Source of the DNA: Nemertoderma westbladi
Taxonomy: Eukaryota > Animalia > Xenacoelomorpha
DNA length: 64,000 nucleotides
Reading direction: 5' to 3'
Assembly (NCBI GenBank): GCA_032718475.1
Contig: JAUCBJ010001007.1
Span: 7,674-71,673, forward strand
Shown here: piece after piece, positions 16,860-48,361 of the stretch
Layout of the letters: each line of letters begins with the position of its first letter
Numbering within the stretch: the stretch's first letter is position 1
Notes under the pieces: generated by a model
What the model saw: the letters and a program-made list of their open reading frames with translations, nothing else
What the model was told of the DNA's origin: nothing
Databases searched by the model: none
Made by a program: the position numbers and the translations under genes

Positions 16860-17494
16860 TGTGACGGGACCTTGGAGTTGGCAGTATAGATCCCGACCGG
16901 TGCGGTGTGTGTTATACGCGTCGCCGCGTCCATAGGCTGCTAAAGCTATAGTCTGGATGTGTATAGTAGGCCGAAAGGCCATTCAAATAACTGAGTTTTA
17001 CTGCCAGTGTTTATAATCGCAGAACGTAATAATAGCACAGTCTGAATATAATAGCACAGTAGTGACGACGATGGTTAAAACTGTTCCGGTCTCACAACTG
17101 TATAGGAACCAACTGAACCAGTAATCAATAACTGCAACGGTTATATTATTATTAACACATACTAAATCAGATCTACACTACTGAGTGGCCTGAGTGTCCA
17201 ATAGATGCGCTCTAATCACTCCCAATGTGCTCTACCACCCACCATTGGCTTAACATGATTAATTGTCACCTCACCACTCCCTGTTGCCACTATCCCACGT
17301 GCTAACCTTACTAGCCTGTTTGTCCCTCTGACGTGGTTTGACCTCTAAACTCTCCCTGTGACTTGTGGCGTGTATCGCATTAGTTGGTTGTGAGGTGACA
17401 TTATTATTGGTAATGTCACCTCGCCAACTATAATTGGTAAAATGCCACTAATCCCATTTTTGGTGGGTAGTGCAGGGAATTGAATCCGCTTACA
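16860..17494 (-). repeat. 3' LTR of element B
   Basis: Minus strand starts TGTAAGCGG right after the PPT and ends ...CCCGTCACA at the satellite edge; the second LTR is absent, so the limits are inferred. Confidence 0.7.
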
Positions 17495-23231: not shown

Positions 23232-23575
23232 CGGTGGTTCCTGGCACTCATCCTTCCAGTGTCATCCTACCGCGCATCGATGACATAGTCCATTCTTACA
23301 TATATAATACCTAATATACAGCTATTAGAATAATAAGATACAGCTATACAAAGGCAGAATTATATAGAGACACGGGTTAGTTACACTAGTACCCCCCCCC
23401 CCCCCCCCCCCCCCCAGTAAAATTTAATGGAATTTATATGATGGCAAAAAAACGAAAAGATCTTAGTTTTTTTATGCCGTTAATATATGCGTTTTTATGC
23501 GTTTTAATGATGCTTGCATGGCTTTTGGTGAGGTCAGTTTGTAACAAGAGTTATCATTCTTACGAATACTGGAGT

Positions 23576-26980: not shown

Positions 26981-29900
26981 ATGTCTGACACTCAGCAAAA
27001 CCTGTCAGACAGTCTAATCGATACAACCATCTGTGACACAGATAGGAGTGTGGAGCGATTAAGAAAGGAGTTCAGCTCACCTCCTACTGAAAGAAAGGTC
27101 ATCCCTCCAGTAGTAGTATCAGACCCTAAGCTAATCCAACACCATAGGTCTATCATCGGCACTCGGGCCCAAGTCAAACGGAACCAGGAAGCAGCTGTCC
27201 AACAGCAGCAACATCCTAGTCAAGAAACTTGTTCCCAGCGATCCGATAGCTCCAGTAGTGCGGATACTGCAGAGCTGACCCCCGAATGCGGAGTGCAGAT
27301 GGCGGCTACAGCCTACTCGGATCCCCTTCTCACCCTTCCTGCCGCAGTGCTAACTACTATATTGATTGCGGTGGAAGAACATCAAGCCGATTGGGCGAGA
27401 AGTATGAGAGCGACCCAAGATAGTTATGCGGGATACGCCAGGGAAGAATTGATGTCTATTGTCGAGTCACAATGGAACTTTCCCGGACCCGGACTCCCGT
27501 TTGATTTGTCCGAAGCTACTTGGGAAGATATACACAGGATGGGAGTGACTAAAGATACAATGGATCCAGCTGTTTGGAAGAGGTCGGCAGCAGGATATGT
27601 GCAGGGATTCTTCGGCTCCTTAGAGCGATTGGAAGAACAACTGTTTCGACAACCCCAAGGACCTCAAGAGCAGGAAGAGCTGCTTTATCAAGTACGTGAA
27701 AGAACCCTACGCATTAGACTAATCTTATCAGCCTTTGAGGAAACTTCCAAAAGAAGACAGGACACGTCGCTGCAGGTTGCTGTCAAAACTTGGTTCCAGC
27801 GGGTAGGTCTCAAAGTACAAGAAACGGCCCAGTGGAAATCCCAGCTGGCTGAGAGACTAACTTATGAAGAACCAACCGATGCCACCCTTTCTCAAGTGGA
27901 AAGCGAAGTGACCGCAGAGAGACCACGAACGAGAGACGCCATCGACATTTATCTGTCCGACTATCAGCGATTCCTAGGAGACGAAGAGTTGAGGAGATGG
28001 CTGTCTGGACTTTCCCCTAATAGTGAAGGAACCCAGCGTGTGTTGGACTCAATCGATGCTGAAATGTTAGCTGCAAACCAAGCTGAATTTGATGAAAAAC
28101 TTCGCCTCGCTAGAGTCCAGGAAGAAGAAGTAAAGAAAAGGCGGATAGAGGACCGAAAAGCAGCGGCAATCGCAGAAGCAGAAGCGGAAAGAAAGGAGGC
28201 AGCGGCAAAAGCAGAAGCAGAAGCACAAAGAAAGGCGGAAAAGGCAGTGGCAGAAGCAGAACGTAGAGCGTCGGAGCAGACTACCCAACTGGAGTTGGAA
28301 AATCTGCAAGAGACGCAAGACAACATAAATAAACAGTTAACTGCTAGTCGAATGCAGATGATGAGACGATCTACTCCAAAACGCCAGGGATACACATCAT
28401 CGGAGGAAAGCGAAACCACCGATCCTGAAGGCGGAGGAAATAGATCTCGTCTAAGCAGGCGTAGAAAAACATCTCACCGCCACAAATTGCCTAATTTGCC
28501 CCCGGCGGTTAGAAGACAACTAACTAGCGCAGACTTAGGCAATACAGAACCCACAGAACAAATTATTCAGGTCAAAAGACTCCCTACAATAGTTGATGAG
28601 CCTGAAATAATTAGGCCTGTCGTTCCCAAAGTCACTTCTGTGCTAGAGACCCCTGTACTTCCAGAGCTTAACTCTAAATTCCCTTTACACAGTACTACAC
28701 TGCCTGTACCCGGTAGAACAGTCCATGAGAATATCCCTGTCCTGGAAGCAGAGAGAGAAATCAAAGATTTGTCTCCCGTCGTCCAGCGTCGGCCCGCTAC
28801 AATGTTGGCGACTCCCGCTTCGGCGGTCGAGTGGGTAGAGGAGGGACGGCGGGGGATGAACCTCCTGCTCGGACAGATGCAGGAGACTGTCCACCAACTT
28901 AAGGGAACAGTAAGGGAAGGTAGGGCAGAATTGCAGGAAGTGCAGCAAAGTATCGCACTGGAACGCGACAAATTAGTCAATATACAAAAAGGCATACCAA
29001 TACCCCCTGTAACATTGTGTCAACCTGTTAGGTCTGAAGTATTACATGCGCAAGGTGTGGAGCCTACACGCATCTATACTGCTAGTGAAGTAGAAACTCC
29101 TATAGCAAACCCTATTAAGGGTGATTATAGACCTGTTATTAATGATATTCCCTATAGACATGATAATGATCCGAGAAATTTATATACCGATAATTCGATA
29201 TTAAATAACACGATGGCCCAAGAAAGCTTTACGCGTCAGATGGCTAGAACAGAAGCCCGCCAAGCGGTCAAAGTGGGAGAGATCGTCAAATTCAATGGAG
29301 ATGAGATGAAATGGTTACCTTTCAACGAATATTACAAAGACAGCATACAGAACTCTGTACTATCTAACGGAGAGAAACTTAGGTTCCTCATCAAGTGCTT
29401 GGAAGGACCTCCCAAGTTAATGGCGTTAAAGTTTATTGGACATCCAGAAGGATTAAGACAAGTTTGGGATACATTAAACATCAGGTATGGTAACCAGGAT
29501 AACATAGCTAAGTATTTGTATGCAAAATTAGTAGCCCCCCGAAACTTCCTTAGTAGCGGGATTATAGAGTTTTCCGATGAGATTCAGGAGATCTGTAGAC
29601 AATTGGACTGGTTAGGTAAGTCTCATGAATACCAGAGTTCCATGGTTATTGGAGCAGTAGTCTCTACTTTACCAAAGGGTGGAGTATGTACACGCTGGGA
29701 CAAGAAAGTGTTGTATATGAATGAGCAACAACGACGAAGCCCTACCATGGCTGATCTCATGTCCTTCTTAGATGGTGAGGTAAAACTACAACTCATCAAG
29801 CAGTCCAGAGAGAAAACATCGGAAAATAAGGTAAGTGAGAAACCCGCTTCTAGGAGAAGAGTAACACCGGTGTGTTACACTGACGACGGCGAAAGCCAAG

Positions 29901-30637
29901 CTTCTCAAGAAGAGGACAGCAGAAAAGACACCGATCGATCTTACTATGTTGACAAAACCTCAAAAGACGTAAGTAAATACAAGGCTCGAAACAACGATAG
30001 GAGAGAACAGGTTGCCAAGACCCCTCCTCAGTCTCCTAACAGAATGCACCGTAGAAAACCCGAAGAAAGAACGAGAGTGCATCAAGTTACCCAAGGTAAA
30101 GTGAGTAACATAAAACCTAACTGTGCGCTGTGCGACGGGACCCACCGTTTGAGTGCGTGTGCTGAATTTCTAAAGAAATCCCTTGTAGACAGACGTGCAG
30201 TCGTGTGGGACAAGCGGTTATGCTATAATTGCCTCAGACCAGGACACCAACGGCGAACCTGTTACTCTGACATAAAGTGTGCAAAGTGTGGCGCAAAACA
30301 TCACATCTTGTTACACAGTGAGTTCGAACGAGACAAACAGAGTCAGGTAAGTGAGCCCGAACTACATGTCCAATTCAGTGATGTAAATGACACTGATCAG
30401 GAGTCTGAGATGGAAGGATTCTATACTGACGAATTCTCCGACGCCAACGAATCCTGTTATCTAATCAATACCGCAGTGTATCGAGCACTTACTTATGAAA
30501 AGGACACCAACAATGAGTTTCCCCCAACTACTTTTGCCAGACAACCATCTTGGAAAGCTCCAACTTCCAACGTAGGAATCAGAGAATTTCCTGTAGTGCA
30601 GGTAAAAGAGTTCACGGTCCTAACAAAAGTTACATAG
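26981..30637 (+). CDS. gag: Gag of element A (long N-terminal extension)
   Basis: 1218 aa; KFNGDEMKW..KLRFLIKCLEG capsid-like region (DUF1759 type); three Bel/Pao knuckles CALCDGTHRLSAC, CYNCLRPGHQRRTC, CAKCGAKHHILLH. Confidence 0.92.
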   Translation: MSDTQQNLSDSLIDTTICDTDRSVERLRKEFSSPPTERKVIPPVVVSDPKLIQHHRSIIGTRAQVKRNQEAAVQQQQHPSQETCSQRSDSSSSADTAELTPECGVQMAATAYSDPLLTLPAAVLTTILIAVEEHQADWARSMRATQDSYAGYAREELMSIVESQWNFPGPGLPFDLSEATWEDIHRMGVTKDTMDPAVWKRSAAGYVQGFFGSLERLEEQLFRQPQGPQEQEELLYQVRERTLRIRLILSAFEETSKRRQDTSLQVAVKTWFQRVGLKVQETAQWKSQLAERLTYEEPTDATLSQVESEVTAERPRTRDAIDIYLSDYQRFLGDEELRRWLSGLSPNSEGTQRVLDSIDAEMLAANQAEFDEKLRLARVQEEEVKKRRIEDRKAAAIAEAEAERKEAAAKAEAEAQRKAEKAVAEAERRASEQTTQLELENLQETQDNINKQLTASRMQMMRRSTPKRQGYTSSEESETTDPEGGGNRSRLSRRRKTSHRHKLPNLPPAVRRQLTSADLGNTEPTEQIIQVKRLPTIVDEPEIIRPVVPKVTSVLETPVLPELNSKFPLHSTTLPVPGRTVHENIPVLEAEREIKDLSPVVQRRPATMLATPASAVEWVEEGRRGMNLLLGQMQETVHQLKGTVREGRAELQEVQQSIALERDKLVNIQKGIPIPPVTLCQPVRSEVLHAQGVEPTRIYTASEVETPIANPIKGDYRPVINDIPYRHDNDPRNLYTDNSILNNTMAQESFTRQMARTEARQAVKVGEIVKFNGDEMKWLPFNEYYKDSIQNSVLSNGEKLRFLIKCLEGPPKLMALKFIGHPEGLRQVWDTLNIRYGNQDNIAKYLYAKLVAPRNFLSSGIIEFSDEIQEICRQLDWLGKSHEYQSSMVIGAVVSTLPKGGVCTRWDKKVLYMNEQQRRSPTMADLMSFLDGEVKLQLIKQSREKTSENKVSEKPASRRRVTPVCYTDDGESQASQEEDSRKDTDRSYYVDKTSKDVSKYKARNNDRREQVAKTPPQSPNRMHRRKPEERTRVHQVTQGKVSNIKPNCALCDGTHRLSACAEFLKKSLVDRRAVVWDKRLCYNCLRPGHQRRTCYSDIKCAKCGAKHHILLHSEFERDKQSQVSEPELHVQFSDVNDTDQESEMEGFYTDEFSDANESCYLINTAVYRALTYEKDTNNEFPPTTFARQPSWKAPTSNVGIREFPVVQVKEFTVLTKVT

Positions 30638-33600
30638 TGAACGCCCTTCTTGACTCCAGCAGCACAGGAACATTCATCGATCAAGAACTAGCCGAAGATA
30701 TCTTTGCTGGACAACCCAAATTTCGGACTAAATTGAATATGTCAGGAATTATGCAGGTTTGGAAATCTACCCTAACGGCAGATTACTATGTAGGTGTGTT
30801 GTCCACCCCCCAGGATAAGTTAGGAGCACAAGGTATAAGGTCGGTAAAAATGGTAGCTATAAAGAACTTCGCTACTACTCAAGCAGACCTTTATAATTGG
30901 GACGAGGATGAGAGCATCCAACATCTTAAGATACCTCGATTCCAGACAGATTATCCTGGAGTGCAAATACTCATCGGCCAAAACGCGCATGAGGCGCTCG
31001 AAACATTAGAGAAACGGCCTGCTCAACCACAGCCACTGCAAACCTATGCGGTAAGAACTAGAGTAGGTTGGTACTTTACTGGCCCTTCCCACAGGACTCT
31101 CGAAGAGAGAATGCCACAAGAACGAATATACCAAGTAAACGATTGGGAAGTGGAGAGCAGTGAGGTGGACGAACTAACTGAGGAAACACCATACTCCTCA
31201 GATAATGACGACATCTACCAACTCTTCGATGAAGAGAACACAATCGACCTACTTACAGAAAACCAAACTTGGAAAAATCAGGTGAACCTATGTCAACTGA
31301 TTCGCCCATCGGAACCCATCGCTTACAATGACGAACTAAACGATGAGATAGAGCGCTACAACGCTAGAACTCGGGACGAACTAGCCATACGATTCTTTAC
31401 TCAAGAACTGGTAGAGCCCAATTCATATGATAAGGCCCTATCGATAGAAGAAGAAAGAGCCAAGCAAATCCAGGAAACAACTACACGTTTTTTAAAGGAC
31501 CAAGGTAGATATGAAATCGGCCTACCATTTCGAAAACGAGAACCTAGATTTATAAATAACAGACCCTTGGCAGAGAAAAGAATCGCTCAATTACATCGAC
31601 GCCTTACGGCTAATGCTTCAGCTAAAGAAATGTACCAAACTCAGCTGAAGAAATTTATAACAAAGGGATACGCGGAGCGAGTACCGGAAGGAACACCAGT
31701 GACCGAGAGAATGTATTACTTAACACATCATTACGTTCCCAAACCCGGTAAACCCCACGAAGTACGAGTCGTATCCGATGGCTCCGCCCTATATATGGGC
31801 CAATCCCTCAATTCCGAGTTGTTACCAGGACCCAACTTACTCCAATCTTTGTTGGGAATACTTTTAAGATTAAGACAATATTCCATCGCGTTCGCCTCCA
31901 ATATAGAAGGAATGTTCTTACAAGTCAAGGCGCTGGATAGAGATAGAGACAGCCTGAGATTTCTGTGGTGGCCGGAAGGAGACCTCAATCAGAAACCGGT
32001 AGAGTACTGGATGATCATCCAGGCTTTTGGAATCATATCAAGCCCTTCCAATGCCTGCTCCGTGGTGCGAACCACTGCGAATGACAAACGAGACTCCTTC
32101 TCAAAAGAGGTGATAGACAACATCAAACGGAATATATACATGGATGACAATTTAAGGTCCCTTCCATCAGTAGAAGAAGCCATAGATGTCGCAAAAGGAA
32201 CGGTAGAGTGTTTGAAAAGAGGTGGATTTCGACTGACGAAATTCACCAGCAACTCCCGTGAGTTTCTGGAAGCGATACTGGTAGCAGACCGAGGAGCGAA
32301 AGACCTAGACTTAATAAAGGACGATCTTCCTGAAACCAAGACGCTTAGCTTGAAGTGGGACACTGAAAGAGACATCCTGTTTTTTCAGTTAAAACAGCGA
32401 GATAATCCAGTTCGGACCAAACGGATTTGTTTAAGTATCCTGAGCACTTATTTCGACCCATTGGGATTTATTAGCCCAGTTATATTGATTGCTCGGAGTT
32501 TAGTACAACAAATGTGGCTTGAAAACCACTCATGGGACGATCCGCTTAAGGGAGAATTGTTAAAGAAATGGATGAAATGGGAAGATTCTCTACCTGCCAT
32601 CGAGAACTTTATAATTTCCCGTGCATATTTTGGCCATGTTCTTCCTACGTATTCTTATCAACTCCATGTGTTTGGAGACGCCAGCGACATGGGAATAGGT
32701 ATAGTATCATATCTGCGAGTCGAAACTCCGGATGGAATCAAAGTCGCCTTGGTTACCTCTAAGGCATTGATTAACAACAAGTTAAAGGTTCCTCGAGCGG
32801 AGTTAAAGGCGGCTTTATACGCTACAGCCATCGGCCGGAATGTAACGAAACAAATCGACTATCCACTGGAGAAAACGGTTTATTGGACCGACGCTTTACT
32901 CGTGTTGGAGTATCTAACCAATGAAGTCTGTCAGTTCAGCGTTTTTGTTACTAACAGGGTAGCTATTATTCTTAGTCGCACGAAGATAGATCAATGGAGA
33001 CATTGCCCTGGTACGATTAATCCAGCCGATATCGCCTCCAGGGGAGCAACTCCACAGGAACTGATAGATACTCCAGACTGGTTGGGTGGACCCGACTTCC
33101 TGAGCAAGGAAGAGGATAAATGGCCTCCTCACCTTACTACGGCGGAGATTAGACAAGCCAAGGGAGCGGAGACAGTCAAACCTAAAACCCGGGCGAGTAA
33201 ATCGAAGTTATTTAAACCGACTATCGATCTATCTGTATTACATGCTTCCGGAAACGATGCTTCGGATCCACAATCCCTCGCCACAAATAAGTCTGTTGTG
33301 GAAATTAGAGATAGAGATTGGACATCTGGAATACCAGACATCTCGCAAGGAATCTCACCCATGCTGCAGAGAGCAATGCATCACTACAGTTCCTGGAATC
33401 GGCTCTGTAAAGCCGTCACATATTTAAGGAGATGTTTTCATCATCACTACTCCAGGACGAAGACCATTAGTGATACCGCTCCATTGACATCTGCGCAAGT
33501 TCATGTTATTAAAAACTTACCCAAATATAAGACATCTGACCGTTTTCTAAAGGAGAAAATTAGCCACCAGGAGCATGAAGAAACAAATAAGCAGATACTG

Positions 33601-34995
33601 AGACTCCTGCAATGCTATGAGGATTCCGATAAGTATTTCCTGTTGTTGAGAAATCCGCAGATGCGCTTAAGGGATCGATTCTCTAGCACAATGATAGATG
33701 GGTTAATACGTGTTGGAGGAAGACTCACCAATGCGCCATTATCCTTTGACACTAAATTCCCCATACTCATTACAAATCTTGAAGTACAAATCAAGATGAT
33801 TGTAGATGTCCACAGCAAACTTTATCATGCTGGTAGAGAACGAGTTCTTAGCGAAATTCGAACTCGCTATTATTTTGATAAACCCCGTAGAGCTCTGAAC
33901 CAAGTTCTTAGGAACTGCATACCCTGTAGGAAAGCATTCAGTAGGCCTTTAACACAGCGAGAGGCAGAATTACCTAGGGAACGAGTAAGCTTCTATGAAC
34001 CACCTTTTACTAATACTGGTGTAGATTTATTTGGCCCTATCGAAGTATATCGTGCGAGGACTATAGTCAAGAGATGGTGTGTCATCTTCGTATGCATGAC
34101 TTGTAGAGCCATCCATCTCGATATGGTGAACGATCTATCTACCAACAGCTTCGTCTTAAGTTTACGCCGACAGATCGCTCGCTTCGGGACGAGTAATACC
34201 ATGAGATCGGACAAGGGAACGAACTTCATTGGTGCCAACAACGAAATACAGGCTTACGTGAAGGACTGGAACCAAAGACAGGTGGACGATCAGCTAAGGA
34301 TAACAGCGTCTAGCTGGACCTTCAACGCCGCCGACGCCCCTTGGTGGGGAGGAAGTTGGGAGAGATTAATTAGAAGTGTCAAAACCGCATTTCACTTTAT
34401 AGTGCCATGCCGCGCGTATCTCACCGACGAACTTTTGCGGACGTTAATGGAGGAAATAGCTGCCTATCTCAACGAGAGACCGCTTATGCCAGTTTCATCG
34501 AGTCCCGATTCCCTGGAAGCTCTAACACCCGCGCACTTCCTACTGAAGAAACCTGTAGCCATGCTCCCACGATCGGAGATTGCCGACGGAGACGAATACT
34601 GCCGTCAAACTTGGCAACTTATGCAGTTGCTATCCCGTCGTTTCGCTGACCATTTCGAGAAACATTATCTGCCCACGCTACAACTTCGAACTAAGTGGTT
34701 TGCGCAGCAAGAAAACGTCAGCGCCGGAGATATGGTGCTTATTGTAGATCCAGACCTCCCACGTAAACGGTGGCAGACAGGTCGTATCATCGAGACCCAC
34801 ATCTCGGATGATGGTTTAGTACGCTCGGTAGAACTCATCGTCAACTTCAAGAAGCCAGGCATAATCTTTGACGCAACAACTCAATCGCCCAGTTGGTCGT
34901 TTATGTTTACTGAAAAGAGACAGAGAACTCTCCGGAAACTACGGAAGGCAAGACACTCTTCCCACGACCACCTCCCTAATTCCTCAAACATCTAG
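30601..34995 (+). CDS. pol: Pol of element A (protease, RT, RNase H, integrase), -1 frame relative to gag
   Basis: ALLDSSS; YLTHHYV..VRVVSDGS; LRFLW; YMDD; VFGDAS, RAELKAA, WTDA, NPADIASRG; HSKLYHAG..CIPC; GVDLFGP, SDKGTNF, GSWERL. Confidence 0.95.
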   Translation, partial: GKRVHGPNKSYIVNALLDSSSTGTFIDQELAEDIFAGQPKFRTKLNMSGIMQVWKSTLTADYYVGVLSTPQDKLGAQGIRSVKMVAIKNFATTQADLYNWDEDESIQHLKIPRFQTDYPGVQILIGQNAHEALETLEKRPAQPQPLQTYAVRTRVGWYFTGPSHRTLEERMPQERIYQVNDWEVESSEVDELTEETPYSSDNDDIYQLFDEENTIDLLTENQTWKNQVNLCQLIRPSEPIAYNDELNDEIERYNARTRDELAIRFFTQELVEPNSYDKALSIEEERAKQIQETTTRFLKDQGRYEIGLPFRKREPRFINNRPLAEKRIAQLHRRLTANASAKEMYQTQLKKFITKGYAERVPEGTPVTERMYYLTHHYVPKPGKPHEVRVVSDGSALYMGQSLNSELLPGPNLLQSLLGILLRLRQYSIAFASNIEGMFLQVKALDRDRDSLRFLWWPEGDLNQKPVEYWMIIQAFGIISSPSNACSVVRTTANDKRDSFSKEVIDNIKRNIYMDDNLRSLPSVEEAIDVAKGTVECLKRGGFRLTKFTSNSREFLEAILVADRGAKDLDLIKDDLPETKTLSLKWDTERDILFFQLKQRDNPVRTKRICLSILSTYFDPLGFISPVILIARSLVQQMWLENHSWDDPLKGELLKKWMKWEDSLPAIENFIISRAYFGHVLPTYSYQLHVFGDASDMGIGIVSYLRVETPDGIKVALVTSKALINNKLKVPRAELKAALYATAIGRNVTKQIDYPLEKTVYWTDALLVLEYLTNEVCQFSVFVTNRVAIILSRTKIDQWRHCPGTINPADIASRGATPQELIDTPDWLGGPDFLSKEEDKWPPHLTTAEIRQAKGAETVKPKTRASKSKLFKPTIDLSVLHASGNDASDPQSLATNKSVVEIRDRDWTSGIPDISQGISPMLQRAMHHYSSWNRLCKAVTYLRRCFHHHYSRTKTISDTAPLTSAQVHVIKNLPKYKTSDRFLKEKISHQEHEETNKQILRLLQCYEDSDKYFLLLRNPQMRLRDRFSSTMIDGLIRVGGRLTNAPLSFDTKFPILITNLEVQIKMIVDVHSKLYHAGRERVLSEIRTRYYFDKPRRALNQVLRNCIPCRKAFSRPLTQREAELPRERVSFYEPPFTNTGVDLFGPIEVYRARTIVKRWCVIFVCMTCRAIHLDMVNDLSTNSFVLSLRRQIARFGTSNTMRSDKGTNFIGANNEIQAYVKDWNQRQVDDQLRITASSWTFNAADAPWWGGSWERLIRSVKTAFHFIVPCRAYLTDELLRTLMEEIAAYLNERPLMPVSSSPDSLEALTPAHFLLKKPVAMLPRSEIADGDEYCRQTWQLMQLLSRRFADHFEKHYLPTLQLRTKWFAQQENVSAGDMVLIVDPDLPRKRWQTGRIIETHISDDGLVRSVELIVNFKKPGIIFDATTQSPSWSFMFTEKRQRTLRKLRKARHSSHDHLPNSSNI

Positions 34996-36640
34996 GGACT
35001 CCCCAACGTGATACGTCTGGAGTGGGTGTATGACTACATTGTTTTATCTATTTTATTATATTTTTATATGCGAACTTTATTATGTACTTTATTATAATCG
35101 TTTTTATTCAATTTTATTTAGTAGAATGTTATTTTAGTGATTATTTAGTAGATTAGTGCAATGTATTAGTGTTTATTATGTACGTAATTACTTATAATAT
35201 ATATTTAGTGCGACGGCGAGAAAATAATTATTTTTCTCTTTCCTTACTGTCCGTATCATATTGTAAATACGTGACTACAGTAAGATGAAATGTCCGTACT
35301 TAGTAAAGTACAATAAAGCCACTACTATATTCAAGTATTATTGGTAGGCAGAGTATTAGGAATGCAAAGTTCAGATCCTCGTGTCTCGGCTAAACCAAGC
35401 TCTGGGTAGACCTTGGAAACGACTTGCCTCTTCACACTGACATTGCTTCGTGCGATATTGCTCTTCTACCTTATATTAAATAATACATATAGTAGCGTGA
35501 TGTCCCTCTAACAGTAGCGTAAAACGCAAATAAATCTGTTAAACCTTTTGACCATCTGTAATTCTAGTCGATTAAGATATCGCGGCACCCACCGATATAC
35601 TTGAAAGACAAATTCTAGAATCAGTGGTTAACGTCCCCAGACAAGTTCTGGAATAAATCGGTGCCCATCTTAAATATTAATTTAATATTTAGTAAAAATC
35701 TGTAAAATTCAGGTCCTTTGAAATTTCTAGTCAATTAAGATATCGCAGCACTTACCGATACTCTTAAAAGACAATTTTATAGAATTAAGGATCCTATGTC
35801 CCCAGACCTGCTCTGGAATCAAATTGTGTCAATTTTAACATCAAATAATAAAATTCACGGGAATAAATTCAAATTCATATTTTAAATGAATTTCATAAAT
35901 TGTCATTTTGTACAATTTATAACATTCCCAAAATTCCATTAATTAATAGATCATGGGAGCGGAGATTCATCCTATTGAGTGTATTAGAGTGCGAGAATCT
36001 CCAACATATAGTCAATAGCCGATAAAATTAATAAAATCATGCATAAAGAGGATATTGACAATTAAAGAATTATTATTAAATAGCATCCCAGATCTGTATG
36101 CATGAGAATTACCCTAATTCTACCGCTAGCATTCCATAATGTCACCATAGCAACACCCACGCTAGAATTAGAAGCAAGTTAAGAGAACAATAGAAAGCTT
36201 GTCACATTGCATAGCATAGAGAATACATAGCACACTGTTAGTATCCAAGGATACACAGTAATAACGTGACATTCTGGAAGGCACTGACTAACGGACAAAT
36301 GGCCTGTATGTGTATAATTGGTGACAGTTGTGTGGAATTTGTGCGTTTATAGGTGAATGTTACTGCTAAAGTATGTTTACAGTAGCTAGTCGCAATTGTA
36401 AAAGTAGCCCAACTCCCCTATAGAAAGAACCTAAGTGGATCCAAGCCTTTGGGACGGACAGTGGAGTGACTTGTGCCGGTTATCGTTGTCGTGCTGTTGC
36501 TACATGTTGGCGTAAACACCGCGACGACGGTACATCGGCGCTGAGAATCCCACTGTCCGGGGGCAAAGAGAAGTAGGCAGCGACGCCCGCTCGCCTAAAA
36601 TATAAACTTATTTTGATATTAATAAACTCAGATAGCAGAT

Positions 36641-39600
36641 ATGACGGAGTTGATAGAAGATGATCTTGGTATTAGGGAGCGATATACTCTACCTTTACAA
36701 GCATTTGTGGATAGCTTAATACGCGGTGAAGCCGATCCAACCATTACGGAGGACGATGGTCGTTATATCGAACCGCCGATGTCCCAAGAGCAACTTGCGC
36801 GTGAATTGGACTATCGAAAATTCACCACTCGCTATACGAATCGTAATGGTACGTATATGGACTTCTTAACTACCGGCCACCCTATCGATTTACATGATAC
36901 GGACGATGTAGATACAGAGAGGGAAATGGTTCTATTTAAATATCATACCCAGCGGAGTCGTAACGATAAACCGAGAATAGATCACGAAAATTCTATTCGT
37001 AATAGACTGGAAAGAGAAAACGTTGAAGAACCGGATAAACGCATCGACTTCAACGAATACCTAGAATTTTTGAGAGAAACCTATCTCAACATCGCTAGTC
37101 AGCAGAACTTAGAGACTCGATATCCTCAAGGTATACATCACGACCCTGTGGTAGAACTCAAACGGCTCTATTTCACTATGATGTATCTTACCGCCGATCG
37201 TCCACTACCTGTTATCCCGGATAGTTTTGAACAAATGGAAGAATATTGCAAAACTGGAGAACGTTCACCCGCGTTTCCTCTACAGGACGTACGTCTTTGG
37301 TATTATTGTGACGAATGCCCTAGACCCAACCAACAAACTGAAAGACACAAACATCCGCGGAGACGTTGCGCTAAACACAGTTTTACGCGTTACACTTACG
37401 GGAGTTTCGAGCGAAACCTGTTCGACGTACCACCTACGATCGCTCGTCTTAAACGATCACTGAATAAACCCATGATCAGAGTTCCGGAATACTCGGTCAG
37501 GCCTCCTCATTCCCTAGTGAGACCTCAAACTCTTGATCCTAACAGTATCACTGATCCTCCCGAACTATATTCCCTGTTCAAAGACTTAGTGTTACCCGAA
37601 CAATTAATCGGTGGTGCTCCGGTAGTGGGTTCGTTAGACATTCGCCCATCCTACTTAGCCGGATTGGGACGCGGGCAGCTAATATCGCCCTTTGATCCTT
37701 ACAATCGTCCAGGATTAAACCCGATGCAACCCGCCACGGAAGTCGAGGAGAGCGTTATAAGAAACGCTTTAGACGCCATTCGACAGAAAATCGGAAAGGG
37801 AACACAAGATTGTTTAGAGAAACGTAAACTACAGCAACAAGTACAATCGGTGAAGGAGTTAGCCTTGCCACAGTTCGATAGAGAAATCCAAAACCTCGAG
37901 GAAGACATCGAGCTTGGACGCACGTATTCTCTACAAGAATTTTTAGGTGAACGCTTACAGAGACAAGCGGAAGAAAATCTACTCGAGGAGAAACACACGC
38001 AACTGGAAGAGAGAGAAGAAGTCGCTTTAGCCCAACATGAAGCTCAAATCCTCATGACAGACCTCTACTCTAAAACCGTTCGTCATCCCTCGATGATTCC
38101 ACATTTCGGAGACAAGCTCTTCGCGACGATACAACCTCAACCGGTTGACATCAGTACAGGATCGCAAAATCTTATCGCTGACGCCCCTATGTTACAGCGT
38201 CCGCCGATCGAGGCCGCTCGTGTTGACGGTATACTCGTTGAACCTCCGGACAATCGAGCGGATCTTGTCCGTCGTATGGTACACAATGTCAACATACGCG
38301 CTAGACCTTTACAGAACTCGTTTTATGGCATTAAAGACCACCCTTATTACGTTAATCTGACTCAATATTATATGGTAAAACCAGAAGACCCGACACATAA
38401 TTTAAAGTTTCTACCACTAATAAATCCTCTAGACATTGTCGAACTCGAACAATTGCAGAAACATCTGGATCAGTTAGTAAAGGTAAACTCATTTAGAAAA
38501 CCATATAACATTTCTCGAATTGAGAAAGATATAGAACCTCCTTATAATCTCGATGGATTTATTAAAACTCGATTAGTCCATTGGAATCTAGATGTATTAT
38601 TTGAAGAAGAGAAAATACAAAGATATGGAAATGTGGAGACGTATACCACTCGGCACATGAAGTATAGTGATCTCCCTGACGCTAACCAATGCGCCACCTT
38701 GTGGCATCCAGTAGGGATGACCCTAGAGAACGCCACCAAGGAGTGGAATGAAACTCTTAATGTTATTGAGATGTATGGAGTTGTCACCTACGATAATGAA
38801 GGTAGCGTTCCGGTCGGAGAACTAGGAACTACGCGCATGATCCACATACGCGGATTAGCTGGTTCTACCCACGTGTTTACTCGAGCGTGTTCCGACGTGA
38901 TTGATTATTCTTTTGAAACTCTCACCGAAACACAAAAGAATCTCCGACATGGACAATTCGAACTCGCGCAGCGTTACGTCATTGACACCGAACGCAAACC
39001 GGCCATGGGCATCGATGGATCGATGTTACCCCAGCCCGTACTCGAGATGTTATTCAACGAAAGAATCCTTAAAATCGGCTCAGCTGTTTATGGAGATCTC
39101 CAAAACGACTTTCGGAATATGTAGAACATTCCATACCCTTTCGTTGATACTCAGCTGATTGCTCCCTGGGCAGAAGGTCGAGGTTTCTTCCGCACCATGT
39201 ATGCTAATACGTCTAGCAACATAACAAAGGTGCAACGAACTTCCATCGGACATCTTGCCTTTCAGGAATACGGATGGAATTTCAAAGTCGGAAATCCCAT
39301 TAACTATCAACAAGTATACGGAGACCATTATTCTCGATTATACTTTGATGGACCATTGACCGCACCTGGCGCCGTGTATAGCTTCATGAGTGTTCCACTC
39401 CGTCCCTCCTTAGCTATATCCACGATCTTTGAAAACACCGCACTTGCCGGTTGGCTAGCCGATGTGTGCAGTCGTACCATACGCGCCCATCCATTAATAC
39501 TTGGGACCAAACTCGCTAAGCTAGATGAACATAATAAAATCATCCGTTTCGAATGTTTCCGGCGATTTTTAACCCCGTTCCGCAACGTGGATAGCCAATT

Positions 39601-40894
39601 TAAAGACCGCGCTTTGACCAAGCTCAGCCTAAGAAACTCAGCTGCAGAGAAGTTGGATAGCGCTGGATTCGCCGTTTTCCAAGAGATTTGTATATCGAAC
39701 TTGCACTCCTCTGTTATACAAAGACCTCGAATCCCCACAGGTTATTCTGTCGTGGAAATTCAGACAATAGGTCCACCTGAAGAGACAGACGCGCCCACTT
39801 CAGCTATGCACTTGGAAGACGAACCAATATGTCTAGAATCTGAAGAGATTCAGCCTATCGCGCCCCGGAACAGCGACAACGATTACATCATAGAATGGTA
39901 TCAAGGTCCACAGTGTCTCACTGCGTACGATTATCGACATGCCAACTATGTTTCTAGGCAACGTTGTCGGTTATGCGCATCGAGAGACCACGATACGCCC
40001 ATGGACACCAACGTCCGCTGTTCCTATTTCCAAGAACAACCGACTATGGAAATTTATTGCGCATATTGCAGACTCAATAACTTGCATATCTTTGCGGTTT
40101 GCCCTCAATTTATGACTCAATGTCACCATTGTCAACTAAAGGGACATGCCAGTTTCGATTGCCCTTTTAATCACGATTTGGAAAGCGTAGATGAAATGAT
40201 CACACTACGTTACATCAGAGCTTGGGAAGCGAACGCTGATTTACATTGTGATTCGCGCCATCGCTATTATCCCGGACGCGCTTACGAAGGAGTTTATGCG
40301 TTCCATCCTTATCTATTCGCTACGGTCGAACAGAAATCACGCATATCGAGTTACGAGCTACTGAATCGCGTCGGAGAATGTATTTCAACCAAATTCGTAC
40401 GCAAATTTCTCAGGAGTGTTAATCCTAGCGACCTTCATTCCTATAACTTAATCAATTATATCCGTCAGGATCCGGACTATGGAGACTTGTTTGTTAACTC
40501 ACACCCCGAGTTACAGGAAGTATATCGACGGCCTTACGAATACCGAGCCCGCGAACGCGAGTTGGAAAGAACCATTAAACCCCGGAGGTTTCTAACTGCC
40601 TATGGTCCACCCACGGCCCTCGTTCAGACCACTCGTAAAGGACCCGTAAGAGCGGCTGTCTTGAAACGAGCTCTCAAAGCCGTTAGACCCCTCTCCCCTG
40701 ACGTTGATGTCAATCAACCCGGTACTTCGACTGGCGGATACACCGAACATAATCCTACACCCTCTGATGCAATCATATTGCACCCTTCACCCAGAAGTTA
40801 TAGCCCTCCTTGTAAAGTGGCTCGCCCCAAAGAGAAAAGGACTCTGGCTAGCTTTAAAAAACTGCGTAAACGCCGTCCGCGCAAGAAAGACTAA
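36641..40894 (+). CDS. Element A ORF3: ~1,417-codon accessory protein (novel N-terminus, coiled coil, DEDDy-like exonuclease, triple zinc knuckle, basic tail), split by one in-frame TAG at 39122-39124
   Basis: 36641-39124 and 39197-40894 are in the same frame, and the gap reads NIPYPFVDTQLIAPWAEGRGFFRT. Motifs: TYDNEG, LPQPVLEML..ILKIGSAVYGD, FVDTQ, SIGHLA, GPLT..VYSFMS, then CRLC..H, CAYC..H..CP, CHHCQLKGHASFDC. Confidence 0.8.
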
Positions 40895-40972
40895 CTGTTT
40901 AGAGTATTTACATATATTAGAAACTGTGATTTTTGTATATTTATAAACTTGAATCCCATTTTCTGGGAGCGG

Positions 40973-42135
40973 TGTAAAAGCTTTTGCGGATATACTCAGT
41001 CCCCCTCTCCCGCAAGGTACCGTTATAGGTGTTTTAACGGACATAAAAGTCATTCTTCTATATACGTGCTTTGGCGGACATGGTAAGGCAAAAAACCCGC
41101 AATGCACCAAATACCCTTACACAGCTTAGCCTTGATGATTCAGATTACGACATCTAACAGCTGGTTGCTGACATGGAAACGGCCATTGGACACATGATTC
41201 TTTGTTTAGCTTAAGCCAATCAGAGCGATTTTTTCTGTCGATGTGGAGATATTCGGCCGATCATACTAGGAGTGTTGAGTCTTACTGTTTTTTCTGGATA
41301 CTTGTTGTTTCTATCTAGGCCAGGAACACCGGCTCTAGAGTCAATTCGTTTTCATACTTTAGAAGAAACATTAGTAGGCTTAAATTATAGAGCGTATAAC
41401 TGTTATCTTATCTTATCTCAATTCAGTCTTACATTATCGGTTCAACATACATTATTATACTGCTATTTACTGTTGTTTGGTTGAATATTATTTGGAGAAT
41501 ATTTATAAAGAACCCAAATTTCCCAATTTTCTTGATACGCTACAGGTTAGAGAGACGGGTTATATATAGCGATTGCGACTTATATTATTGTGGTTTGTAG
41601 TGAATTTAATGCTATTTGATAAGCACTACATGAGTCCGTTGCTGTTCTCTTTATATATGATAAAATTCATTGACGGTCGGCAAATTAGTGAGCAGTATTG
41701 TGTGTTACCGGTAGTGTGCCTGATTGTGACTGATAACTAAGCATTTCCTAAAGAATGCGCCTCATACGTGAATCATAAGCCTTACCGACTTACCGTTGTG
41801 ATTAGTATAAGTCATATCTCTGTTTACCTAGATAGAGCGCCACGTCCTAAAGGAACTGTTAATATTTCCCGAAAGTGAATAATATTAGTCAGAAATTATT
41901 TATTAACGATCAATCGAATAATACAGTAAGCTTACACTGCAATAATAATCTAAGCCCTCAGAATCCAGTCTCCCGGGTATATCCAGCGGGTGAATGGACG
42001 CGCACTAGGCTGGCTTCTGCTAATGTTGTGTTTATTGGTATTAAATATTTGTCAACTTCTAGAGTCTATTTATAAACCAAAACACCTATAAATTTTGGCA
42101 GGTTAAACTGCTAAAGGTCTTCAAAAGCGCGTACA
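40973..42135 (+). repeat. 3' LTR of element A
   Basis: Direct repeat of 23576-24746, preceded by the PPT and followed by TSD GGAGT. Confidence 0.95.
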
Positions 42136-43706
42136 GGAGTAGAACTTAAAGTGCCAATCTGTCAATCGTATTGAGATGGTAATTTTGCTTAATGTGAAAT
42201 ATTTAGCTATATAGTACATGTGAAAGAAACAGTAGCAAGTTTGGTATATTGCTGAACCATAGGATATAACATAAAATTATATGAATATACTGCTACATAT
42301 ATTTTCTAGAATCCCGTATCAGAGCAATTTCTAAGAAAAGAGAATAATTTTAGGACAAAATGGTATCATACAACATTTATAGAACATTTTTTTTAAATTA
42401 TACGATTATAATTTACCTAGTTTCCGTAGCAATATGCGAAAAATAACAATAAACGGAAATAATACCTGAAGCAAATTAATCTGAGTTATACATGATTTAT
42501 TTGCTGAAGGTTGGCCTTCAGCAAAATTGCTTCAGATGGCCTTGTATATCGTATGTATATAGTACGCCTTGTGCCCAAGTCACTGAATTAAGACACAATA
42601 TTCCAGGAGATGGCCTAGGTACGCACCAACGAAGTGGAACTGGCATATTTACCAATAATATACAAAAATAGCTATTAAAATAAGTTGTTTCAAAATTATA
42701 ATAATTACTATTGAAATGAATCATAAAAAAATGTTCTAGAAGACTTTTATTATAAAATTTTTCAAATATATGAAAAATTATTTTAAAAACGTGTGCCTAC
42801 TAAATTTAGTAGGTAGAATGCAGCTTTCATGGTCGTATAATTAGTATGTGATGACTGAACATGTTTTTATCAATATTTTGTCCACATTCCAAATGTTATC
42901 GGTTACCATGGCAACAGAGGCAAACTTGAATGGTCGGAAAGTAATTGTCTGGACTTGGCAACATGCAAGACACTAGATCCAACGGTTCCCCTTAAAAAAT
43001 TACAGGTATGGTAAGTATCTACTCCTGTGCCAATTATGGGAAGTTTGTCCAGAACGTCCACATTAACTTGCTAAGCGACCTGACTATAAGTCTTGATACA
43101 ATAAATAAATAGTTCTGTACCTTTATAGCTATTTATTTTATATTATTTGTTATTTTTTAAGCACCAAGTGTCCAGTCGTGTGAGGAGTGCAACAAGGTAA
43201 TAATAATATCCTAATATAATAGCAGCAATGTGAAATGTTTAAATTACTAGACTATTGTCGATATCATTGTATATTTATTGTCTTCACTACTTTTATGGAA
43301 GTTAATAAAGGTTAACAACGTACCTAGAATTGGGTTTATTTTTACAAACTATTTGAAGGTGATCTACATTACTACATTTTCATATATATTCCGTTTTTGG
43401 AGGTTAGTATACTTTTACTCTTGCTTTCATCGTTTCCATTTATTATGTTCAAATAAAAAGGAGGAAGAGAGAATAGAAAGAATAATGGCAAACAATCAGT
43501 TCACATTGCTCCTCATGTTTAACTTCATGAATTCTAATGTACTAATGTATGTAGCTTCACTCTTTCGAAATTCCTAAATACGCACTGCCTCAGGTTCCCT
43601 TTGTGTAAATTTGTGATCTTTTGTGTAGGTATCCCGGAAATTGTGTTCCAGAATATTGAGATAAACTATAGTAAAAATGAAAACGATTAAATTAATTAGA
43701 TTTGAT

Positions 43707-45368
43707 ATGTATATATTTAATGTATTATTAGTAGAAATATTTTGTCTAACTAACTCATTGGCAACTTCCAAGTGTAATGATAATGATAACTTGACTATTT
43801 TGTCTAATTTATTGAATTGTCTCACCCAAGACTATGACAATCGTTTTCGTCCAGTAATAAACGAAGAAGATCCTCTGGAGATTTCAGTTACCTTAAGTAT
43901 TGATTCTGTGGGACCTATCAGTGAGTCGGATATGAACTTCAGAATAGACTTCTCTTTACGACAGTACTGGACTGACCCGCGCCTTGAATTCGATCAAAAT
44001 ATAACTAAGGGGAAAGAATTGTCACTAGCTTCATTATTTCTTAAAAAACTGTGGCAATCAGACATCTATTTTCCAGAATCGTTGAAATCTCTCAAGCATG
44101 ACGTCATGACGCCGAATGTGTTGGTACGTATTTCCCCATATGGAGAAGTTCTCACCAGCACAAGAGTTACGGTTATAGCCAAATGTGCCATGTCCTTATC
44201 ATATTTTCCTTTGGATAGACAGAATTGCACTTTAACACTGGAAACATTTGGATACATTACGAAAGACCTTATCTTGAAGTGGAAAGATTTGGACAATTTT
44301 GGAATCGCGGTTGTACCAGTTCCAAATCTCAAACTCTCTCAATTTTCCTTGATGGGCTTCAATTTCACCACAGAACCATTGACAGTGGAATATTCCACTG
44401 GAAACTACTCTAGAATTGAAGTTGTGTTTGTATTCCAAAGAGAAATCACCTATTATTTACTCCGCATATATACTCCTGCGGGCCTCATTGTCGCACTTTC
44501 ATGGGCGTCATTTTGGGTTAATGCATTCTCAGTCTCAACACGCGCAGCAATTTCAGTGACCACTGTTCTTTCACTAATAACTCTGGTTGGATCAACGTCT
44601 AGCTCAATACCCCCAGTAAGTGAAGTTAAAGCCATTGATGTTTACATTGCCGTGTGCTTTGCGTACGTTTTCGGAGGACTATTAATATTCAGCGTTGTCC
44701 ATTATTTCTCGGATAAATCAAAAAAACAGCGGGTTTCGGAAACACAACTGGAGATGGAACCTCAGCAGTCAGGAACCATGATGACATCCTATTTTGATAA
44801 AAGGTATAAAACAAAAATAAATGGGTCTTCGCATCGTGTAGAGCACATGATACGGCGGCATGGTAGTCCAAATGAAGATGTAAAGAGTGTTTGCACTAAA
44901 ACAATTTTAGTAAAAGAGCAACAACAATCCGGTGATCAAGACCGCAGAGAAACATGCAACAGTCGTAGTTTGCACGATGTGAGCAGTAGAACATCAACAG
45001 CCATGTCACCAGTTGGCCAATCGAGTGCACAAAGTAGTACAAAATCCGCAGACAATATAATCAAGGAATATTTCAGAAAAGTTGTATTTAATGCAAGGAA
45101 TATTTTAAAAAGTGTTACAGTAACAAGAAAGCAACTACATTCCAATGAAGCAGAAAATTTGGGAAATGTTGGAGTCGAAAGGCGTGGACAAATTAAGAAG
45201 AAATTAAAACTCAAAATTTTTCATAAGATCGATTACTGCAGCCGAATGTTATTTCCTCTATCCTTTTTTATTTTTAATATCTTATATTTTGTGGTATATT
45301 GCAAACTGGCTAGTCTCGCCACGTTCGAGTATACGCATTCTTACCCCTTGTCGGATGAAAATAAATAA
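43707..45368 (+). CDS. Cys-loop ligand-gated ion channel subunit, single coding exon, copy 2
   Basis: Cys-loop CAMSLSYFPLDRQNC, LRQYWTDPRL, four TM helices. Start placed at the second Met (MYIFN) by comparison with copy 1; an in-frame upstream ATG lies at 43677. Confidence 0.93.
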   Translation: MYIFNVLLVEIFCLTNSLATSKCNDNDNLTILSNLLNCLTQDYDNRFRPVINEEDPLEISVTLSIDSVGPISESDMNFRIDFSLRQYWTDPRLEFDQNITKGKELSLASLFLKKLWQSDIYFPESLKSLKHDVMTPNVLVRISPYGEVLTSTRVTVIAKCAMSLSYFPLDRQNCTLTLETFGYITKDLILKWKDLDNFGIAVVPVPNLKLSQFSLMGFNFTTEPLTVEYSTGNYSRIEVVFVFQREITYYLLRIYTPAGLIVALSWASFWVNAFSVSTRAAISVTTVLSLITLVGSTSSSIPPVSEVKAIDVYIAVCFAYVFGGLLIFSVVHYFSDKSKKQRVSETQLEMEPQQSGTMMTSYFDKRYKTKINGSSHRVEHMIRRHGSPNEDVKSVCTKTILVKEQQQSGDQDRRETCNSRSLHDVSSRTSTAMSPVGQSSAQSSTKSADNIIKEYFRKVVFNARNILKSVTVTRKQLHSNEAENLGNVGVERRGQIKKKLKLKIFHKIDYCSRMLFPLSFFIFNILYFVVYCKLASLATFEYTHSYPLSDENK

Positions 45369-45850: not shown

Positions 45851-48361
45851 TATTATATACTCGTCTTGAAGGTCTCTCGTTTCCTGAGTGGTAGCGCCAG
45901 GCCCATTGGTGGTGACGCTGAACTGTGGAGTGCGCTCCTCACCCGCTACGAGGCGCACAGCTCCCGCCTCTGCGAGGCCGTCACCGGCTTGGCTCGACGC
46001 CTCGCCAACTTGGTGGTCCTGTGGGGGGAGATCCGGGCGCTCCGAGCGTGCCGCCTCGTCGCTTTAGACAAGGAACCCAGCATCCGGCCGATTGGGATTG
46101 GGGAAGTCCTCTACTGGCTCACCACTAACTGCCTCACCTCGGCCACTAAAATTGACTTTATAACAGAGTGTGTGGCAGACCAACTCTGTGCGGGAGTAAA
46201 GGCTGGTATTGAAGGCGCAGTCCACGCGATGTCGGCGATGTTCGAGCAGAACTCAACAGAATGTATGCTCCTCGTCGACGCTGCCAACGCCTTCAACAGC
46301 CTGAGTCGCCCTGTCGCCCCGTGGAAACCGCGTTCACTGGCACTGGTGCTCCCGGTACCTGTACAACGCGCATAACGGCCATGCAGCCCTCTACCTACAG
46401 GGGTCTAGCAAACCACTGTGGAGTAGGGAGGGATATACACAGGGCGACCCGGCGGCCATGCTGGGCTACGGCTGTTGGAATCTCCCCATGATCCGCTCAC
46501 TTAGGGAAGTCGGCAATACCCCTCCGACGCACCTTAGCGATCTGCCACCCTGCAACCCGCCACCCGCGGTTCCGACCACCCGGCATCCCGCCACCCGGCG
46601 TTCTGACACAAGGCGTCCTGCCACCCGGCAACCCCACCCCACCACCCGGCGACCCGTCACTCAGGGACCCGCCACCCTGCGACCCACCACCCTGCGACCC
46701 GCCACCCAGAAACCCGTCACCCAGAGACCCGCCACCCCAAGACCCGCCACCCAGCGATCCGGCACCCGGAAGTACCACCTGCTGGCAAAAGCAGTGCTGG
46801 TACGCGGATGACGCCTCATCAGCAGGGTCCGTCGCCGGAGTGTGGGAATGGAGGGAGGAGCTGTGCCACCGTGGACCCCGAGTTGGCTACAAACCCGAGT
46901 CCACGAAGAGCTACCTGGTTGTGAAACCAGAGTTTGAGAGGAGGGCGACGGAGGTGTTCGGGGATTACGGAGTCCGGATCGTATCCAGCCACCGTTTCCT
47001 CGGTGGTTACATGGGGGACTCCCGGGGACTGCGGGAGTTCATAGCGGAGAAGGTGGTGGGGTGGGTTACAAGTATCGCTCAGCTCTCCGAGGTGGCTGCG
47101 GAGTACCGACAGACTGCCCATACCGGTATGTCCCACTGCGTCCAGCGGAGTGGGACTACGTGCTTCGGGTGGTGGAGACTAGGGATGATGATCTGGCGCC
47201 GATCCGCACTGAACTGTTGCGTCGCTTCATCCCGGCCCTCTTTGGGACTTCCCCCGGAACTGTGAACGAGGAGCTGGTCCTCCTCCCTGGTTGCTGACCA
47301 CTCCGCCTGTCTCGCCTCCGCATTGGCTACTAGTCGCGTCGCCCAGGACGCTGCCTATAAGGCAGCGATGGAGTCCGCCGTCCAATCCGTCCCCTCCGAA
47401 AGGCGCCGTACTGTGGACCGTACGGTGTCCCACAAGGTGGGTGGGTGGCTGTCGGCGCAGCCCTCCGTGGTGGATAACACCGACCTGGCCCCGGAGGTGT
47501 TCCGCGACAACCTCGCACTGAGGTACGGCCTCACGCCGCCTGGCCTCCCGGTGAAGTGTGAGGGGTGTGGGGAGCCGTTTTCGATAACCCACGCCCTGAA
47601 CTGTAAGTCGGGTGGCCTGATCATAAAGTGGCACGATGAGGTCCGTGAGGTCTTTGGGGACCTCATCGCTTCTGCCTTTGGTGGTTCATGTGTACAGCCT
47701 GAAGTCACGCTGTGCACCGGCTACCTGGACAGAAGGGGCCGCGAGGTGGGGGGAGTTAGGGCTGATCTCCTGGCGAGGGGAGTCTGGACTGAGCAGAGGG
47801 TGGCGTCGTTCGATATCGCGATTGTAAACGCTGACGCCCCCTCATATGCTCACCGGTCCTTAGACTCTGTCCTCGAGCAGAGAGTCCGAGCCAAGAACGT
47901 GCACTACAGCGCAGTGTGCAAAGACAGAAGGTTCTCCTTCGCTCCCCTTGTCGGAACCACCGACGGGGTCTGGTGCAAGGAGACTGATATCTTCATCAGC
48001 CACCTCGCTGAGACCCTTGTGGCTCGGCAGCAGGGGATGCGGGAACGTGGCCTAGCCTGCGTTCTCGGGGGAGTTCGGAGGCGGCTTCAGTTCGCGCTCC
48101 TCCGCTCTAACTCCCTCTGTCTGCGTGGTGGCCGGCGTCCCTGGAGGGTGCTGGGCTTTGGAGATGGTGCGGGTCTGCGGGGGAATGACCCCGTAGACCG
48201 GTATTAATCCACGGTGCACCATTTTTAATTGTATGTTTAATTGGTTTGTCTTAATTGTATTGTTCTGATTGGTGGTGGGATGTTGGGTTGGTGCAGCTAT
48301 ATATTTAATTGTATATACAATTTTAATCTCTTAATTAATAAATAATAATGAATCCATTAAC
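45851..48361 (+). mobile_element. 5'-truncated, frameshifted CRE-clade non-LTR retrotransposon
   Basis: LVALDK..IRPIGIGE, QLCAGVKAGIEGAVH, VDAANAFN, QGDP, WYADD, RFLGG, C..CG..HALNC, RADL..FDI, K..HY. AT-rich tail; candidate 17-bp TSD TATAAAAATATATATTC (45834-45850, 48362-48378). Confidence 0.88.
46520..46770. repeat. ~15-bp minisatellite (CGACCCGCCACCCAG) inside the CRE RT
   Basis: About 15 degenerate units between the QGDP and WYADD motifs. Confidence 0.75.

Follow-up and report, generated by a model that had tools for sequence, protein, structure and literature searches.

DEDDy-type exonucleases encoded by a third open reading frame (ORF3) have been published for the bdelloid rotifer retroelements Juno, Vesta and Athena/Terminon (Rodriguez et al., 2017, PMC5408684; restated by PMC5718144 and PMC6338049), and the available portions of the first of these papers introduce them as previously unreported in retrotransposons. 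In the Bel/Pao superfamily, the third genes of Tas, Cer7, Cer13 and Atlas are described, in the available text of PMC8742986, PMC9094657 and PMC554778, as env-like and coding for a fusion glycoprotein. Here we analysed a 64,000-nt stretch of DNA from Nemertoderma westbladi (Xenacoelomorpha; contig JAUCBJ010001007.1 of assembly GCA_032718475.1, positions 7,674 to 71,673 of the forward strand), hereafter the window, in which a complete Bel/Pao element carries, between pol and its 3′ long terminal repeat (LTR), an ORF3 that joins a domain of very probable DEDDy ancestry to three zinc knuckles (Table 1). An initial annotation of this DNA, made from the letters alone, had named the rotifer elements as precedent and knew of no such fusion in Bel/Pao. 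The precedent was confirmed, and our literature search likewise returned neither a Bel/Pao exonuclease ORF nor an exonuclease-knuckle fusion, Repbase, GyDB, Dfam and subscription papers lying outside its scope; the available parts of PMC13269885 and PMC11662393 mention no such ORF. DEDDy ORF3s in retroelements are known, and what is apparently new is the Bel/Pao host together with the knuckle fusion.

As far as the available account of the rotifer elements goes, their ORF3 likewise follows pol and takes up the env position, is RNase D-like and of DEDDy type, contains no transmembrane segment and has an altered acidic set; the host element differs, that of the window being Bel/Pao. The acidic set is DEED in the rotifer ORF3s, whereas it appears to be D-E-D-E in the window. 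Moreover, fusion with three CCHC-type knuckles and an N-terminus of ~700 aa sets the window ORF3 apart; the same account names knuckles in gag/pol only, as well as a Cys-His-Cys motif in two Vesta ORF3s. Neutral variation was reported there for the rotifer ORF3s sampled, in contrast to the purifying selection seen for the window ORF3. With Tas, Cer7, Cer13 and Atlas, as described in the text available, the element shares the order LTR, gag, pol, third gene, LTR, a triple Cys-His gag and a D-D(49)E integrase, but their third gene is env-like while ORF3 is soluble and bears nuclease and knuckle motifs. Cellular RNase D, Rrp6, WRN and Mut-7/Nibbler, as well as the inactive EXD1 and Exuperantia, have the ExoI, ExoII, DTQ and ExoIII blocks in the same order as ORF3, which differs from them in falling below all curated cut-offs, in a long insertion ahead of ExoII, in a Glu in ExoIII, and in having knuckles in the same chain. 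Rrp6, for its part, works in trans with the knuckle proteins Air1/2.

Judged from its LTR ends, target duplication, gag/pol hallmarks and Pao-specific Pfam domains, the element belongs to Bel/Pao, as initially annotated. The two LTRs align at 98.2% identity (13 mismatches, 5 gap openings). The triple Cys-His box of gag fits the CX2-4CX3HX4H pattern of PMC554778, and pol, with the order protease, reverse transcriptase (RT), RNase H, integrase, matches Peptidase_A17 (E 1.5e-35), DUF5641 (E 2.5e-18) and the integrase zinc domain Integrase_H2C2 (E 2.9e-07). Its RNase H carries FGDAS, and the integrase residues are D1170, D1232 and E1282; a triple Cys-His gag, a DAS RNase H and a D-D(49)E integrase are given as Bel/Pao hallmarks in the available text of PMC554778. 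At 18,560 bp the element exceeds the 4.2-10 kb that the International Committee on Taxonomy of Viruses (ICTV) gives for Belpaoviridae (PMC8742986), a descriptive range that was not treated as defining Bel/Pao membership, since Bel/Pao elements in a de novo survey (PMC3118150) have a median length of 7.4 kb and run up to 22.8 kb. The element had been called giant, which holds in that it is ~2.5 times the median and above the ICTV range; it lies below the survey maximum and is therefore no record. No relative of the element was found among the metagenome contigs searched.

Between pol, which ends at 34995, and the 3′ LTR, which starts at 40973, lie two abutting in-register frames, 36626-39124 (832 aa) and 39125-40894 (589 aa), separated by a single TAG and giving ~1,417 codons when joined, as had been proposed. 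The chance of at most one stop across 1,417 codons at this base composition is ~5e-32, and a chance origin of the open frame is therefore excluded. The motifs named in the initial annotation were all located where it had placed them, namely YDNEG (38789-38803), LP..V..L..ILKIG...D, SIGHLA, the three Cys/His knuckles and the basic tail, with FVDTQ (39140-39154) sitting after the stop and ahead of the next Met. The protein has neither a signal peptide nor a transmembrane segment, its best 19-residue hydropathy window reaching only 1.21 and its N-terminus being acidic, so that an env identity was rejected, in agreement with the earlier claim. For the N-terminal part, no useful match was found in the Atlas resource (0.75). 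Canonical CX2CX4HX4C spacing is present in one of the three knuckles, the third; the set matches zf-CCHC_3 at E 0.03, below the cut-off, and the leads in the Atlas resource score 0.86-0.88, the top two with zf-CCHC. The possibility that these knuckles are a clear copy of those in gag was rejected (22% identity over 49 aa, E 0.018). The last 88 aa contain 22 Lys/Arg against 6 Asp/Glu, a composition that makes the tail a possible nuclear or RNA-binding signal.

In order to compare the ORF3 domain with known DEDDy enzymes, we used ten bacterial reference domains, comprising E. coli RNase D and PolA and eight loci from plasmid records. In ORF3 the D-x-E of ExoI follows a hydrophobic strand and precedes the Asp of ExoII, in the expected order, with ExoII set off from the N-terminal strands by an insertion of ~45-50 residues. 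An ordered test of seven motif blocks, which were defined from the ten references alone and which permits long insertions, gave a score of 61.5 against 35.2 ± 4.8 for shuffled sequences (z 5.5; 0 of 300 shuffles as high), compared with 26 for gag and 36 for pol, and put ExoI, ExoII, DTQ and the SIGHLA helix at the positions initially annotated. Among NCBIfam models the window protein has only two matches, both to RNase D (E 0.0045 and 0.035), and the plasmid search gave one match at E ≤ 10, with RNase D as its annotation (E 7). PHROGs gave weak matches only, one of them a named exonuclease at E 0.26, and no library match to the exonuclease domain rises above a curated family cut-off.

A HMMER search of 1.84 billion representative proteins returned one match, P0005, an unnamed singleton of 648 aa from a 9,449-bp contig of the European Nucleotide Archive (E 2.5e-06, ~30% identity). 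P0005 has the same layout as ORF3, with an exonuclease, a low-complexity linker, three knuckles, a conserved segment after the knuckles and a basic end, and is without the long N-terminus and the insertion. Its own block test gave z 10.3, with D-x-E, D and Y-x3-E, and its knuckles find matches in retroviral nucleocapsid proteins (E 1e-4) and a weak one in Air2 (E 0.064). A profile built from the pair ORF3 and P0005 matched the bacterial alignment from ExoI to DTQ with 88% probability (E 3e-06). No ORF3 homolog was found in a set of 5.8 billion (0 of 3,095 and 0 of 4,134 candidates), and P0005 as query recovered only itself among 809 candidates, in searches that need shared words and are length-limited; none of the metagenome or viral contigs searched contained a related locus, and the exact window proteins are absent from the protein collection searched. 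On these homologies, each of them weak, the domain is very probably of DEDDy ancestry, and it is DEDDy-derived rather than a canonical member. The DEDDy match initially claimed thus stands as regards the RNase D matches, the ordered blocks and the three knuckles, and does not extend to any curated cut-off or to the ExoIII acid, which appears to be Glu.

Copies were compared in four of seven listed public runs, six of which contain the stretch or part of it. In the richest run, which may derive from the window's own sample, 26,071 contigs align on 35000-41000, with likeness from >99% to <90%; the element family is therefore large and diverse, contig depth in these runs not being usable as copy number. 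At place 39122 all aligned depth differs from the window in 4/4 runs (59, 37, 4 and 2 contigs). The TAG is therefore either private to the window copy or an error in the sequence. In the family the gene runs on through that point, and the two frames form a single gene there, as the initial annotation had joined them. Programmed read-through of the TAG was rejected, as other copies are without it. Place 39420, in codon 927, likewise differs in essentially all aligned depth in 4/4 runs (44, 22, 3 and 1 contigs). The window copy itself is thus broken, with two private lesions, the TAG and the codon 927 change in ExoIII.

Variable ORF3 places were taken from the best 40 of 1,675 (32 in ORF3, the other 8 in the spacer) and the best 40 of 90, two being shared. 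Among the 70 so listed, which are a best-supported subset drawn from related and hence not independent copies and whose codon-position count differs from a ratio of nonsynonymous to synonymous rates, 54 fall on third, 11 on first and 5 on second codon positions (p ~8e-14). The third-position share of the listed places is 36/48 before the stop, 18/21 after it and 15/23 in the N-terminal part. The best 12 of 104 indels all lie in the spacer, no indel reaches 35% within 38770-39420 in the copies of the runs compared, and codons 718, 720, 819 and 836 are hit by none of the variable places listed. From the third-position bias and the exclusion of common indels, ORF3 is under purifying selection among copies. 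The initial annotation had asked whether ORF3 might be missing from other copies or neutral; what we found were copies continuous at the TAG and this bias. That ORF3 is a captured host gene carried neutrally, or that its exonuclease likeness arose by chance, is accordingly very improbable: the homology scores are all weak, as such a reading would have it, but the codon bias, the lack of common indels, an independent homolog with the same layout, and the failure of protein-set searches to find any close cellular relative speak against it, and neutrality of ORF3 is already largely refuted.

As for function, the reading that we rank first, and hold as tentative, somewhat short of probable, is that ORF3 would encode an RNase D-type 3′-5′ exonuclease that is tethered to RNA through three nucleocapsid-like knuckles and counters small-RNA silencing. 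It was ranked first because relatives act in silencing, because Gag already has packaging knuckles, and because the family is very large. Processing of structured RNA ends is a function of DEDDy relatives, among them mut-7, according to the available text of PMC5408684, and the trimmer of PIWI-interacting RNAs (piRNAs), Nibbler, is a relative of this nuclease class in that of PMC13269885. ORF3 may be expressed apart from gag-pol, either from a TATA promoter at 36601 or from a message spliced immediately ahead of its ATG: TATAAA at 36601 lies 30 bases ahead of a TCAGA initiator-like site, two AG acceptors directly precede the ATG, and the rotifer ORF3s are said, in the available part of PMC5408684, to use spliced messages. 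The zinc knuckles would tether the protein to single-stranded RNA, the exonuclease would shorten RNA 3′ ends while the knuckles hold the RNA, and the product, acting in trans, could benefit the element by trimming or destroying host silencing RNAs.

A number of observations weigh against an active exonuclease directed at small RNAs. A hidden Markov model of the ten references was marginal, its best domain scoring 5.5 bits where the highest of 500 shuffles scored 5.3; the window protein has no Pfam exonuclease match and no nuclease among its sequence matches in the PDB; and P0005, compared here as a protein sequence, matches PF01612 at only E 0.2, over ExoII. Two predicted structures were unusable, with a mean predicted local distance difference test score (pLDDT) of 30.2 and 35.9, and a fold search with the second model, too poor to be meaningful at that confidence, returned nothing at E ≤ 0.001. 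Among the copies, the exonuclease domain is lost through a 2,804-bp deletion with its joint at 37009-39814 (3/4 runs, one contig each). The data of this analysis also contain no link between the ORF3 protein and small RNAs. Finally, the fourth acid is ambiguous: the bacterial blocks prefer ExoIII at residues 904-918, with Tyr913 but Ser917 at the acid (3.5 vs -11.5), in which case, if that register is right, the domain would be without its fourth acid; and on the alternative register the acid is Glu instead of Asp, which is non-canonical. The deletion joint probably marks an internally deleted subfamily.

The initial annotation named no ExoIII, and its position here comes from P0005. In BLAST, phmmer and MAFFT alignments alike, the ExoIII of P0005 falls on ORF3 residues 918-933, which puts Glu931 at the acid position and Ser927 opposite the tyrosine. 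A first reading, with ExoIII at 904-918 and a dead nuclease, was displaced by this alignment and is retained as a rival. The canonical Y-x3-D is unmet on either register, the sequence being S927-x3-E931 on that of the homolog and Y913-x3-S917 on the other. The 918-933 register is favoured, which would give a metal site D718-E720-D819-E931, and P0005 suggests a D-E-D-E acidic set in ORF3, not D-E-D-D. In the rival, ORF3 would be a pseudo-nuclease whose DEDD fold is retained as an RNA-binding scaffold that localises or shields element RNA. We consider this unlikely, since D-x-E, D and the ExoIII Glu are common to P0005 at ~30% identity and a dead site is less likely to keep them; in its favour are the fourth acid, a Glu in one register and missing in the other, and the insertion ahead of ExoII. 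There are parallels among cellular proteins, in so far as the Exo domain that Exuperantia uses is inactive and Egalitarian can do without its catalytic residues (available text of PMC5785220); the available text of PMC5408684 describes both EXD1 and Maelstrom as derivatives of DEDD enzymes that are inactive.

The two other roles raised in the initial annotation, namely primer or RNA 3′-end trimming and fidelity support, bear on the replication of the element itself. ORF3 could be a replication-cycle factor, with the knuckles recruiting the protein to the element's ribonucleoprotein or particle and the exonuclease trimming the 3′ end of element RNA or a non-standard primer. The knuckles do resemble nucleocapsid, and Rodriguez et al. 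propose 3′-end processing of element RNA in the text available (PMC5408684). In addition, the ICTV account lists a tRNA-Arg/Gly primer site after the 5′ LTR as a descriptive trait of Belpaoviridae (PMC8742986), and no site starting with TGG is present in the first 154 bases after the 5′ LTR of the window element (24747-24900), an observation on one copy only. On the other side, Gag already carries its own triple knuckle, and the available text of PMC8742986 and PMC3118150 describes most Bel/Pao elements with gag, pol and sometimes env only. We regard this role as possible but rather unlikely.

Proofreading of the reverse transcription of a ~17-kb genome, by analogy with the nidovirus ExoN, would suit an element of this size, and the DEDDy class includes the proofreading domains of DNA polymerases according to the available text of PMC5408684. 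Against it, ORF3 is a separate gene outside pol, its best matches are to RNase D and not to polymerase domains, ORF3 and the two spacers account for much of the extra length, and the element copies are widely diverged. RT error rates are 1e-5 to 1e-4, at which the load would be only 0.2-1.7 errors per copy. Fidelity would thus be the weakest of the three roles initially suggested, and we give it very little credence.

Enzymatic accessory genes of LTR retrotransposons have been published mainly for rotifers, where neither selection nor activity was demonstrated; ORF3 puts such a gene in a different superfamily, kept by purifying selection throughout a family of very large size, with knuckles common to a distant homolog. 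If silencing RNAs are indeed the target of ORF3, a retroelement of an animal would encode an enzyme that suppresses defence by piRNAs or small interfering RNAs (siRNAs), and retrotransposon resistance to small-RNA silencing would become testable with one small domain. A bolder form of the counter-silencing reading is that ORF3, as the first member observed, and P0005 represent a distinct counter-defence family, in which an active D-E-D-E exonuclease with nucleocapsid-type knuckles would let Bel/Pao elements degrade host piRNAs or siRNAs and would have let the family of the window element reach very high copy number, P0005 showing its spread across other hosts; this we regard as doubtful.

Table 1. 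Features of the Bel/Pao element and its ORF3 in the window (positions are those of the window; a dot marks features without strand)
Feature	Position	Strand	Remarks
5′ target-site duplication	23571-23575	.	GGAGT; same 5 bases after the 3′ LTR
Complete LTR element, Bel/Pao	23576-42135	+	18,560 bp; flanked by target duplication
5′ LTR	23576-24746	+	1,171 bp, TG...CA
Leader	24747-26980	+	2.2 kb; internal tandem duplications (290-bp, 123-bp, 76-bp)
gag	26981-30637	+	DUF1759 and Bel/Pao triple Cys-His box
pol	30517-34995	+	protease, RT (YMDD), RNase H, integrase D-D(49)E; -1 frame relative to gag
Spacer between pol and ORF3	34996-36640	+	1.65 kb, AT-rich (64%), non-coding; indel-tolerant among copies
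ORF3	36641-40894	+	1,417 codons from ATG at 36641; single internal TAG in window copy
ORF3 N-terminal part	36641-38737	+	~700 aa, no known family; weak coiled-coil stretch near residues 447-481
Predicted RNase D-like DEDDy exonuclease domain	38738-39475	+	ExoI D718/E720, ExoII D819, DTQ D836, ExoIII 918-933 with E931
TAG stop in ORF3	39122-39124	+	
Codon 927	39419-39421	+	aligned with ExoIII tyrosine of P0005; second place where window copy stands alone
Three Cys/His zinc knuckles	39965-40162	+	CX2CX4HX9C, CX2CX5HX4C, CX2CX4HX4C
Pro- and Lys/Arg-rich tail	40628-40891	+	sequence composition
Short purine-rich tract	40965-40972	+	GGGAGCGG; adjoins 3′ LTR
3′ LTR	40973-42135	+	1,163 bp
3′ target-site duplication	42136-42140	.	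GGAGT

Some further features of the window were recorded. Just past pol, at 35019-35030, a purine tract followed by TGT resembles the usual junction of pol end and LTR start, and looks as though an earlier 3′ end had lain here, with ORF3 and the spacer inserted after it. The spacer was also considered as an LTR remnant, which was rejected because blastn finds no LTR similarity in it. A related LTR, ~72-80% identical in pieces, lies at 2580-3779 on the minus strand and probably represents a solo LTR from a sister family. Three intronless genes for Cys-loop receptors, closest to GABA-A and glycine receptors, are found at 6491-8119, 43665-45368 and 59177-60904; two of them are 84% identical and lie inside a 15.5-kb duplication, and the third is ~50% identical. 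A long inverted repeat of 1.1 kb at 13412-14542, with arms 92-95% complementary, is foldback-like or resembles a miniature inverted-repeat transposable element, and large minisatellite arrays, mostly of ~30-bp units and with strong GC skew, occupy 1-790, ~15100-18000 and 51991-53410. GC-rich frames of 257 and 313 aa at 46492-48207 have a 15-bp repeat and no Pfam match, with a diverged, inverted partial copy at ~62731-63112; they are possibly another mobile element.

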